Of a DNA stretch of 64,000 bases, positions 13,964-53,142 are shown in pieces. Origin of the DNA: Chloroflexota bacterium (GTDB lineage Bacteria; Chloroflexota; UBA11872; VXOZ01). The stretch spans positions 288,001-352,000 of the forward strand of contig CAXXVD010000001.1 of NCBI GenBank assembly GCA_963662335.2. Direction: 5' to 3'. The translations under genes were made by a program, and so were the position numbers. Positions within the stretch are counted from its first letter, which is position 1; every line of letters starts with the position of its first letter. The notes beneath the pieces are model-generated. The model was given only the letters and a program-made list of their open reading frames with translations, had not been told where the DNA came from and ran no database searches.

Positions 13964-14000
13964 GGGAGGGTACGGCCGAACGCGGCGCCTCTACAACTAT

Positions 14001-14124
14001 GTCATTCCGAGCGCAGCGAGGAATCTAGGGCGCGCTGCGAAAATGCAATAGTCCGTACCTCCAGCGGCGCCATCGCGTCCCGCACGGTAGACTCCTCACT
14101 CCGCGGCGCTCCGTTCGGAATGAC
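14001..14124. repeat. REP-C inverted doublet (GTCATTCCGAGCGCAGCGAGGAATCT ... reverse complement)
   Basis: Two inverted arms with unique spacer. Confidence 0.9.
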
Positions 14125-14149
14125 AGTCACGTGACGCAGCACACCCACT

Positions 14150-17498: not shown

Positions 17499-17690
17499 CC
17501 TCAATCCGTCATCCATATCCTCAATCCGTCATCCGGAGCCTCAACCTGTTATCCGGATCCTCGAGCTGTCATTCTGAGGAGCGCAGCGACGAAGAATCTA
17601 GAGCGCAGTGACGAAGTATCTCTATCGAAACAGAGCGACAGAGTATCTCAAGCTCCGCGACTCCAGATTCCTCGCTGCGCTCGGAATGAC
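17499..17690. repeat. Degenerate 20-bp tandem repeats running into a REP-C doublet (17568-17690)
   Basis: cctcaatccgtcatcc.... units at 17499, 17519, 17539, 17559. Confidence 0.8.
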
Positions 17691-17724
17691 AGTCACGCAC
17701 GTCGCGCAGATGCCACGAACGCAC

Positions 17725-22078: not shown

Positions 22079-22227
22079 GTCATTCCGAGCGAAGCGCAGC
22101 ATGTCATTCCGAACGAAGCGCTGCATGTCATTCCGAACGAAGCGCAGCGCAGTGAGGAATCTAGGGCGCTGCGCCTACAGCGCTCACTTTCATTCAGCCC
22201 TAGATTCCTCGCTGCGCTCGGAATGAC
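22079..22227. repeat. REP-C doublet with left-arm head reiterated 3 x 24 bp
   Basis: gtcattccga.cgaagcgc.gcat at 22079, 22103, 22127; right arm ends 22227. Confidence 0.9.
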
Positions 22228-22315
22228 AGGAGCTATGACCTCTCGCTAGCGGAATCGGATTCTGTCTACGAACTAGCCAACACTCACGGAGATGAAGGAT
22301 GGAATTCGCCGCCGG

Positions 22316-32404: not shown

Positions 32405-32636
32405 GTCATTCCAAGCGCACCAACATCATTCCGAGCGCGCCCACGTCATTCCGAGCGCACCCACGTCATTCCGAGCGCACCCACGTCATTCCGAGCGCAC
32501 CCACGTCATTCCGAGCGCGTCCACGTCATTATGAGCGCACCCACGTCATTCCGAGCGCAGCGAGGAATCTAGAGCGCTGAGGCCATCCGACTGCGTGCGG
32601 CATGGGCACGAGATTCCTCGCCGCGCTCGGAATGAC
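32405..32636. repeat. 7 x 20-bp tandem repeat of REP-C head followed by complete REP-C doublet (32545-32636)
   Basis: gtcattccgagcgcacccac units every 20 bp from 32405. Confidence 0.93.
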
Positions 32637-32712
32637 ATGAGGAGTCAAGTGGCCAAGGAATGCGTCAATACGCGCAGGCACGACATCGGCTCCGTGTCCG
32701 CTTGGGCCTTCA

Positions 32713-35819: not shown

Positions 35820-35849
35820 CGAACCTGTTCCGCTCTCTCCCCGTAGCGC

Positions 35850-36000
35850 GGTTGACAGGGTTAGGTATTTCATAGTCGACCTCACCTGTCATTCCGAACG
35901 GAGCGCAGCGGAGTGAGGAATCTAGAGTGCAGCCCTGCAAAACCAGCATCTCTAGATTCCTCGCTGCGCTCGGAATGACATCTTTGCTCCCCTGTCAGCC
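35850..36000 (+). mobile_element. MITE-1, 151 bp, 11-bp TIR, 7-bp TSD, inserted in REP-A
   Basis: GGTTGACAGGG...CCCTGTCAGCC flanked by GTAGCGC on both sides; contains REP-C doublet 35888-35979. Confidence 0.85.
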
Positions 36001-36074
36001 GTAGCGCGGGGGCTTGTCCCCCGCCTCTTGGCACGTAGCGAGAACCCGTTCCTTGGCCAGGCGATTCGCCTGCG

Positions 36075-42000: not shown

Positions 42001-42046
42001 CTTGCGGCGCTCGGAAAGCCCAAGCGCAACCCGGCTCCCTTTGTCT

Positions 42047-42120
42047 GTCACTCTGAGGAGCGCAGCGACGAAGAGTCTCGTGTCGCAGGGCTCTAGATTC
42101 CTCGCTGCGCTCGGAATGAC
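42047..42120. repeat. REP-C doublet
   Basis: Degenerate left arm, canonical right arm, inverted symmetry extends into flanks. Confidence 0.85.
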
Positions 42121-42303
42121 AGACAAGAGCGCTCAACGAAGGGGGTAAGTACGGGCCCTTAAGATTCCAATGAGACAATCTTAAGTCCCCTTTGCGCCGG
42201 ATGGGGTACAATGCTGCTTGAAATTGCTTGAATTGCCGCCCATTGCACACAGAGTCCCGCACGCAAGCAAACGTCACCCGAAAGTTAAGGAAGAGTACCT
42301 CGC

Positions 42304-48742: not shown

Positions 48743-48756
48743 AGGGCACTCCTGAG

Positions 48757-49055
48757 GAGACTCTTGCGCACATCCGTCATTCCGGCGAAAGCCGGAATCC
48801 AGTGGCGTTTTGGCAGCTATAGTTTCCATGAGGTCAATCGCTTGAACCGCCATCCCAACCTTTCCCCTCAAAGGCTGACAGGGGTAGGCAAATGTCATTC
48901 CGAGCGCAGCGAGGAATCTAAGGATGTTGACTTTAAAGTGCTGTGCTTTAGATTCCTCTCTCCGCTGTGCTCCGCTCGGAATGACACGTGAAATCGTCTA
49001 AAGAATACATATCCCTGTCAGCCCCTCAAGGGGAAGGGGTTTAGGCAAAGGTCTC
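48757..49055. mobile_element. MITE-3 (outer element) with GAGAC-type TIRs, containing REP-D, family E hairpin and nested MITE-1
   Basis: GAGACTCTTGC ... GCAAAGGTCTC flanked by CTGAG on both sides. Confidence 0.68.
48873..49023 (-). mobile_element. MITE-1 second copy, 151 bp
   Basis: GGCTGACAGGG...CCCTGTCAGCC; flanks CCTCAAA/CCTCAAG; gap-free alignment to reverse complement of 35850-36000. Confidence 0.85.
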
Positions 49056-49106
49056 CTGAGGGACTGCGCTGCCCGCTGCGCGCCGCTCGTTTGGGCGCTG
49101 CCTAGT

Positions 49107-52949: not shown

Positions 52950-52993
52950 TAGTCTTCCGGCCCTCAGCCACGCCGCGCGTCCACGTTGCCAAT

Positions 52994-53095
52994 GTCATTC
53001 CGAACGGAGCGCAGCGCAGTGAGGAATCTAGTGTAAGGCGCGGACTGGACCAGGTGCGGGATGAATCCCAGATTCCTCGCTGCGCTCGGAATGAC
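52994..53095. repeat. REP-C doublet
   Basis: Long-type left arm, short-type right arm. Confidence 0.9.
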
Positions 53096-53142
53096 ATCTA
53101 GGACAGAGTCCGTCGCCCCACCTCCATGGAAGAGGCACGTCA

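Follow-up and report, generated by a model that had tools for sequence, protein, structure and literature searches.

Within the stretch of DNA analysed here (the window, 64,000 nucleotides; C1:288001-352000 of a 3.23-Mb Chloroflexota genome in five contigs with 64-65% G+C), a short sequence with a palindromic interior occurs twice, on opposite strands and each time inside another palindrome. The question raised by this locus is whether the sequence is a mobile element in its own right, what moved it if so, and how it relates to the repeats around and within it. An earlier note had described it as a 151-bp non-autonomous element, MITE-1, and much of this description holds. The copies at 35850-36000 (+) and 48873-49023 (-) give a gapless alignment in which exactly 30 positions differ, as first counted, and both do lie within palindromic repeats. 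Non-autonomy is borne out as well. As is characteristic of bacterial MITEs, the element is short and leaves no room for a transposase, has terminal inverted repeats (TIRs) and a target-site duplication (TSD) of fixed length, exists in many dispersed copies (43 of them full), is present or absent among relatives, with an empty orthologous site, and shares its ends with an autonomous insertion sequence (IS) in other genomes. Our preferred reading, to which we give a probability of about 0.8, is that MITE-1 would be a 147-bp non-autonomous transposon with IS4-family ends and a REPIN-like cargo, moved in trans by a cognate transposase.

The borders of the element had to be redrawn, since the 151-bp limits were two bases too wide and the genome-wide element measures 147 bp. 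In place of the 11-bp TIR first proposed, a search for the ends alone located a 16-bp TIR, CTGACAGGGGTAKGTA, at both ends of 28 copies, with CTGACAGGGG constant in the ends of these 28 end pairs. The outermost two bases of the proposed 11-bp TIR are variable (AG, CG, TG...; GCA, GCT, GTT...). The outer GG/CC differ among copies and belong to the target, not to the TIR. Likewise, the proposed 7-bp TSD gave way to a longer one. In the 43 full genomic copies, the left and right flanks agree only in an 11-bp register, mean identity reaching 0.725 at k = 11 and no more than 0.43 at any other k from 3 to 16, and flank identity one base outside this register is 2% on the left and 5% on the right. So sharp a register indicates an element of 147 bp and a duplication of 11 bp. 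The preference for palindromic targets can mislead hand annotation in this way, with target bases taken as TIR and an 11-bp TSD as one of 7 bp. The features of the window are collected in Table 1.

Table 1. Coordinates, in window numbering, of the two MITE-1 copies, their parts and flanks, and of the solo REP-C doublets.
Feature	Position	Strand	Detail
Copy A left TSD, 11 bp, CCGTAGCGCGG	35841..35851	+	Present once at the orthologous site of 6 relatives
MITE copy A, 147 bp	35852..35998	+	nhmmer full-length, 156.6 bits
Copy A left TIR, TTGACAGGGTTAGGTA	35852..35867	+	Degenerate form of CTGACAGGGGTAGGTA
REP-C arm 1, long form	35887..35926	+	Consensus 36-75; mean identity 0.93, 43 copies
Variable inter-arm linker	35927..35951	+	Consensus 76-100; mean identity 0.78
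REP-C arm 2, short form, inverted relative to arm 1	35952..35981	+	Consensus 101-130; identity 0.97
Copy A right TIR	35983..35998	+	
Copy A right TSD (35999-36009, CCGTAGCGCGG), running into the target REP-A hairpin (GTAG-tagged REP)	35999..36024	+	
Copy B low-coordinate TSD, CCCCTCAAAGG	48864..48874	+	Matches the other side at 10/11
MITE copy B, 147 bp, opposite orientation	48875..49021	-	nhmmer full-length, 151.2 bits
Copy B high-coordinate TSD, CCCCTCAAGGG	49022..49032	+	
Solo REP-C doublet, no MITE ends	13998..14126	-	
Solo REP-C doublet	17564..17698	+	
Solo REP-C doublet	22124..22229	+	
Solo REP-C doublet	32545..32650	-	
Solo REP-C doublet	42043..42122	+	
Solo REP-C doublet	52992..53100	+	

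Duplications are present on the further copies too, and they are of 11 bp: 26 of the 43 full copies match at 9/11 positions or better (9 perfectly, 11 at 10/11 and 6 at 9/11), and 17 match at fewer. At least four of these 17 (C2:74032, C5:649848, C5:373854 and C1:140275) have the MITE between arm plus loop on one side and loop plus arm on the other, each junction looking normal by itself, an arrangement that one 11-bp event does not produce. Recombination between two copies with different duplications would give such mismatched flanks; alternatively, two insertions in one hairpin, followed by a deletion, would do the same. In G011, another genome of the genus, 20 termini were fetched as a non-random sample and both ends were located for 19 copies, of which ten have TSDs of 11 bp (seven perfect), three of 10 bp and three of 12-13 bp, the remaining three being ambiguous. 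The 20 'unpaired' termini of G011 were all MITE copies, with the second end elsewhere or off-pattern. Additionally, position 13 of the left TIR covaries with its partner in the right TIR (alignment columns 13 and 159; G-C in 14 copies, T-A in 6), which indicates either two putative subfamilies with symmetric ends or a symmetrisation of the ends.

The census of copies is far beyond chance. A search of the genome gave 45 matches, with non-self E values down to 1e-49, and a whole-genome BLAST of the element gave 267, which fall into three nested kinds: the full element, its inner part (about positions 37-132) and a single REP arm of 26-31 nt. An nhmmer profile built from 14 copies yielded 243 non-overlapping matches, comprising 43 full copies dispersed over all five contigs, 23 one-ended copies (8 with the left end only, 15 with the right end only), 112 doublet cores and 65 single arms or pieces. 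Full copies are mainly 147 bp (15), 146 bp (6) or 161 bp (6) long, and the copies sampled from G011 are mostly 146 bp. Mean pairwise identity is 0.82 among 26 copies of the source genome and 0.92 among 11 copies of G011 (maximum 0.986); the G011 copies are the youngest. The 161-bp subclass is set apart by a 14-nt insertion in REP arm 1, a small palindrome of the type GTCGAAC...GTTCG (columns 64-77 of the alignment, as in L020:1503-1663). As this insertion also occurs in G011 copies, either it was present before the two genomes diverged or transposition spread it. The earlier suggestion of selection for length could not be upheld as demonstrable, as a constant length fits shared descent (147- and 161-bp subclasses here, mostly 146 bp in G011).

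Comparison with relatives provides the empty site. Each of the 16 other genomes of the genus has kept the genes beside copy A, and six (G002, G008, G009, G012, G013 and G016) show at the orthologous position the REP-A hairpin with the 11-mer once and no MITE. For copy B, the two duplicated segments at 48864-48874 and 49022-49032 together restore the loop region of a 'family E' hairpin. The spacers of the nine relatives examined have neither this hairpin nor a MITE, and hence copy B has no orthologous empty site. The family E hairpin itself belongs to a repeat of greater length (about 125 bp plus 40 bp; window positions ~48747-48874 and 49022-49063), which has many matches without a MITE in G008 and occurs in G011 with a MITE at the same hairpin.

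The inner REP doublet and the complete element differ in their distribution. The doublet was matched in 16 of 16 other genomes of the genus and in five of seven of a second family; the full-length element, among the matches listed (150 of 444), was present in G008, G009, G010, G011, G014 and G016 only. A 14-nt terminus is most frequent in G011 (130 occurrences), followed by the source genome (G000; 39), and six other genomes of the genus have 1-9 each. All nine genomes of g5, a genus of a different family, contain it as well, 7-38 times; the reversed pattern, used as a control, gave 0-1 matches per genome. Termini fetched from four g5 genomes bound short elements with other cargo or adjoin other IS. 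These short elements (L088-L099) are about 150-310 bp long, with ends CTGACAGGGGTAGGT(T/A)TTT and unrelated interiors made of other REP-like modules. The same ends around unrelated interiors imply that, in another family of the class, these IS ends have taken up palindromic cargo of other kinds.

The autonomous IS that the earlier note said should be sought was found, in other Chloroflexota genomes. A scan of one genome per species for CTGACAGGGGTAGG returned at least 116 stretches, several of which have two inverted termini 0.8-1.7 kb apart. One of these is a 1333-bp IS (L189:2001-3333) with CTGACAGGGGTAGGTATGGG at both ends, identical to the MITE ends over 17 nt, flanked by a perfect 11-bp TSD, AGAGGTCTTCC, and containing a single 400-aa ORF (L189:2107-3309) with no frameshift. 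Two related IS have the same ends, one of 1354 bp with a 10-bp duplication (L170) and one of 1346 bp that is broken (L162). The 400-aa ORF matches Pfam DDE_Tnp_1 (PF01609) at 45.6 bits (cut-off 23), and its best NCBIfam match is to the IS4 family (NF033591) at 97.7 bits, below the cut-off of 152; NF033592 gave 40.1 bits, below its cut-off of 115. The protein carries YALRFWIELGFKALK, the Y(2)R(3)E(6)K (YREK) signature, in its C1 region. PMC2266710 defines the IS4 family by the YREK signature, a single ORF and direct repeats that span roughly a helical turn (7-13 bp). All three are seen in the L189 IS, which also has the DDE_Tnp_1 domain. With its sub-threshold NCBIfam scores, the transposase is either a divergent IS4 member or part of a subgroup outside those models. 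A sequence search of solved structures returned no relative of it. In public metagenomes more than 2300 relatives were found, and one of the 120 listed was named 'transposase [Chloroflexota bacterium]'.

Homologues of this transposase are present in 10 of 98 genomes of the class (29-52% identity among the alignments listed), including seven of the nine g5 genomes at 42-52% identity, where one locus (L238) is a 1313-bp IS with ends CTCACAGGGGTAGGTTTTTT. In the genus of the source genome only G014 matches, with a degenerate, broken remnant. At TIR position 13 this remnant has the T form and the L189 IS the G form. The source genome gave no transposase match at E<=1e-8 (best tblastn E 0.24), and the cognate transposase was not found in G011 either, despite its having the most termini (130) and the youngest copies. 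Searches of the source genome by PF01609 matches, inverted-repeat scans and self-BLAST found no locus that pairs MITE ends with a transposase. Its nine PF01609 matches are all IS5-like or broken IS4-like and were rejected as the partner; inverted-repeat scans of two of the transposase loci gave nothing useful, and the PF01609 loci of g5 have no termini, except for one MITE beside an IS5-like element. Having no cognate transposase in their genome, the MITE-1 copies of the source genome are orphans, and their mean pairwise identity of 0.82 suggests that they are old ones. MITE-1 and the IS share only 17 nt, which means that MITE-1 is not a simple deletion derivative. The case is a clean and checkable one of an orphan MITE in uncultured Chloroflexota, for which the type of IS that must have moved it can be named.

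We infer the mechanism of transposition from its footprints (TIRs, TSDs, the empty site and the intact IS) together with what is known of the IS4 family. A cognate DDE transposase, supplied in trans, would excise MITE-1 and join it to a target cut with a stagger of about one helical turn, and repair of the gaps would leave the 11-bp duplication (range 10-12 or 13 bp). The preferred target is a GC-rich 11-mer with C first and G last. Such 11-mers are abundant in the palindromic REP-like repeats of the genome, where insertions are probably harmless, and with suitable sites abundant and insertions probably tolerated copies would accumulate in palindromic repeats. The interior of the MITE is a REPIN-like doublet of host REP-C and not IS sequence.

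Copy A lies in REP-A and copy B in a family E hairpin, and 26 empty sites could be reconstructed from the copies with TSD matches of at least 9/11. The first base of the duplication is C in 24 of these and the last is G in 22, and the bases immediately outside it are C in 24 and G in 20; this bias at the borders explains how GG...CC came to be misread as TIR. Judged by eye, 24 sites lie within recognisable palindromic repeat families (18 CCCTCTCCC-N4-GGGAGAGGG hairpins, 4 family E and 2 REP-A), and two (C3:438538 and C1:31232) lie outside known repeats. A perfect stem of at least 6 bp is centred on 16 of the 26 sites, as against 14% of 5041 non-coding and 7% of 3000 coding CC-N9-GG control sites, under a crude coding mask of 3227 ORFs with high GC3 that covers 75% of the genome. 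The preference for palindromes, or the survival of insertions there, is real; recognition by the transposase, an extended preference in sequence or the persistence of insertions that do no harm would each account for the enrichment.

From the two copies alone, the earlier note had gone further and proposed targeting of structure rather than sequence, in which case the transposase would recognise extruded hairpins or cruciforms. The enrichment of palindromic context speaks for this proposal. The register of the duplication, however, is loop-centred in family E, lies at the 5' base of the stem in REP-A, and takes in either the 5' arm plus loop or the loop plus 3' arm in the CCCTCTCCC-N4-GGGAGAGGG family, and the C...G ends are kept throughout this variation between and within families. 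With a register that varies relative to the hairpin, structure targeting is unsupported in the form proposed. The two sites outside known repeats speak against it as well, as does the intact L189 IS, which sits in AGAGGTCTTCC with no obvious hairpin, and the enrichment itself could stem from purifying selection elsewhere in non-coding DNA and from target families that are not independent. We regard recognition of structure as unlikely.

IS231A prefers the target GGG(N)5CCC. According to Tobes and Pareja (2006, PMC1525189), REPs act as hot spots for elements from five IS families, ISRm22 of the IS4 family among them, and the targets of Tn5 are palindromes whose repeat ends carry G/C pairs.

An improbable alternative is that MITE-1 was mobilised by a second IS4-family element, intact in G011 (L052:1070-2281 and three further copies, L053-L055), which encodes a 367-aa transposase between ends CAATGTTGTCGCATTAA. 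This transposase scores 156.9 bits against the NCBIfam IS4 model NF033592, above the cut-off, and degenerate pieces of the element lie in the source genome outside the window (C2:441596-442560 and C3:445135-445434). All four G011 copies are in a REP-A hairpin, between GGGCT(C/T)GTCCC repeats, a placement compatible with an 11-bp duplication, and among the 98 class genomes the element was found only in G011 and G000, the two with the most MITE-1 termini in the genus (130 and 39). These two may be close kin, however, in which case the co-occurrence amounts to a single observation. Its ends are unrelated to those of the MITE (best short-word matches 9 nt, E 0.5), for which reason it was rejected as the parent; the exact MITE ends are carried by a different IS, that of L189, and termini are abundant in g5, where the 367-aa transposase was not found.

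Other mobile elements of the lineage were also considered and set aside as partners or parents. An IS of about 1.65 kb with 25 copies in G008 has ends GAGG(G/C)TGTCTCAA (L079, L083 and L085, ~697-2341), and each of the three copies read has entered a CCCTCTCC-N4-GGAGAGGG hairpin precisely at its 4-nt loop, which is duplicated; with different ends and 4-bp duplications, this IS was rejected as the parent. Self-BLAST of the source genome revealed a five-copy element, 99-100% identical and outside the window (C1:375074-376108, C2:285163-286197, C3:8166-9199, C3:634540-635573 and C5:466146-467180), which we read, from its translated ORF alone, as a putative IS30-family member. Four of the five copies lie inside or against GTCATTCCCGCG...CGCGGGAATGAC REP hairpins, and the ends are unrelated to those of MITE-1. 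Beside the solo MITE end at C2:449778 lies an element with a DDE_Tnp_1 match (L033:1320-2525; C2, ~448.5-449.7 kb) and ends GGAA(C/G)(C/G)TCTGAACAAGT, which its ends and ORF lead us to read as a probable IS5-family member. It is inserted at CTAA/CTAG within a MITE-1 arm, with the far-side remainder of the MITE missing, and being itself an insertion into the MITE it was rejected as the partner. Some ends of contigs are shared in inverted orientation at 99.8-99.96% identity (C2:1-4981 with C3:4981-1, 5.0 kb; C2:865097-866876 with C5:702026-700251, 1.8 kb) and are probably unresolved repeats at assembly breaks.

In this lineage at least four different IS types and MITE-1 land in REP palindromes, giving repeats inside repeats. 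Our literature search found no paper on REPs as transposition hot spots in Chloroflexota. The landing of these elements supports the older view of REPs as hot spots that is put forward in PMC1525189.

The cargo raises a question of its own. It occupies positions 36-130 of the element, where a 25-nt linker separates two REP-C units, 40 and 30 nt long and inverted relative to each other. That the arms are better conserved than the linker, as had been noticed from two copies, is confirmed on 43 (mean identity to the consensus 0.93 and 0.97 for the arms, 0.78 for the linker; 0.85 for the TIRs and 0.80 for the left subterminal stretch). The one unusual point lies in the TIRs, which (at 0.85) diverge more from the consensus than the cargo arms do (0.93-0.97). 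The consensus fold (27 of 43 copies) contains 39 pairs, with both sides changed in 3 of them and in none within the arm cores. The pairs of the REP arms are almost invariant and yield no covariation signal, neither for nor against selection on pairing. Arm 2 has dozens of 100%-identical copies of 26-31 nt elsewhere in the genome.

REP-C doublets also occur alone, with 161 end pairs, main sizes of 102 and 75 bp and borders T|GTCATTCC...GGAATGAC|A. These solo doublets show no duplication, flank identity being 0.18-0.27 at k = 2-11. REP-C predates the MITE that carries its doublet and is more widely distributed. The single Y1 transposase gene (RAYT) of the source genome is flanked by inverted REP-A; this RAYT-like locus (L040, C2:167303-170566) has GTAG-tagged REP-A flanks, as do L274-L283 and L291. 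Of the 17 genus genomes searched, 14 contain Y1_Tnp loci, 19 in all; REP-A flanks 12 of these and REP-C not one. Seven loci have a second, longer Y1-type ORF, which adjoins neither repeat. The cargo has the inverted REP hairpin with better-conserved arms that is typical of REPINs and lacks a RAYT with the same REP, and it looks like a REPIN-like doublet without a RAYT.

This anatomy, the one RAYT gene in the genome and the predicted single-strand DNA fold of the whole element (copy A) into one long hairpin (-39.9 kcal/mol, z -7.9) would also suit a long REPIN of 147 bp moved as single-stranded DNA by a RAYT (HUH/Y1), the 'TIRs' then being the base of the hairpin. We consider this very improbable. 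Duplications of 11 bp are the product expected of staggered DDE cuts (7-13 bp in the IS4 family, according to PMC2266710), the solo REP-C doublets have none, Y1 loci adjoin REP-A (12 of 19) and never REP-C (0 of 19), and the same ends bound a DDE-encoding IS; the TSDs in particular largely refute it. More improbable still is that the copies are immobile and were carried about when REP clusters recombined or duplicated, for although the element lies in repeat-rich spacers that are highly variable among relatives, each copy has its own 11-bp duplication of a different sequence, the empty site is precise in six relatives, and the copies are dispersed over five contigs.

Transposition by a DDE enzyme remains the preferred reading, and within it the origin of the cargo admits a doubtful further proposal, namely that REP-C may be a RAYT-less REPIN family of the genus that was packaged between DDE transposon ends and so gained a second, cut-and-paste way of spreading. 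If this were true, near-invariant arms next to decaying ends would point to a host function of REP-C and not to the needs of transposition; alternatively, continuing gene conversion among more than 200 REP-C copies would keep the arms uniform.

MITE-1 and its cognate IS can be placed among known systems. In its single ORF, DDE_Tnp_1 domain, YREK signature and 11-bp repeat, the cognate IS resembles the IS4 family of the IS10/IS50/IS231 type, and its 5'-CT ends are those of the subgroups IS10, IS50 and ISPepr1, as these are set out in PMC2266710. The same source gives repeats of 9 bp for IS10, 8-9 bp for IS50 and 7-8 bp for ISPepr1, and places repeats of 10-13 bp in subgroups with CA or AAT ends; unlike the cognate IS, no subgroup in its Table 1 combines CT ends with repeats of 10-12 bp. 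The cargo, for its part, is like that of REPINs as described by Bertels and Rainey (2011, PMC3116915), with inverted REPs, a less conserved spacer of fixed length, a long hairpin and solo copies free of duplications. The doublet of MITE-1, in contrast to REPINs and their RAYTs in that account, is enclosed by DDE-type ends and moves with duplications.

An arrangement of IS4-family ends around cargo other than a transposase is familiar from elsewhere, as is the use of REP palindromes as landing sites. MIC231 of Bacillus cereus, derived from IS231, has such ends around non-transposase cargo and is moved in trans; MIC231 elements are kilobase-sized and carry genes, whereas MITE-1 is 147 bp long with a non-coding REP doublet as its cargo. 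IS1397 and ISKpn1, of the IS3 family, insert into the REP loop at a fixed position and make short duplications. Both are named as REP-inserting elements in PMC1525189, and MITE-1 shares with them the use of REP palindromes; the 25-copy IS of G008 is closer to them than MITE-1 is. ISRm22 of Sinorhizobium meliloti, an IS4-family element reported in PMC1525189 as inserted only in REPs, also has some copies with non-matching direct repeats, which are attributed there to recombination between copies. ISRm22 is, on the same account, autonomous, with 6-bp repeats and insertion at the palindrome axis; MITE-1, by comparison, is non-autonomous, duplicates 11 bp, and enters its targets in several registers and in at least three repeat families.
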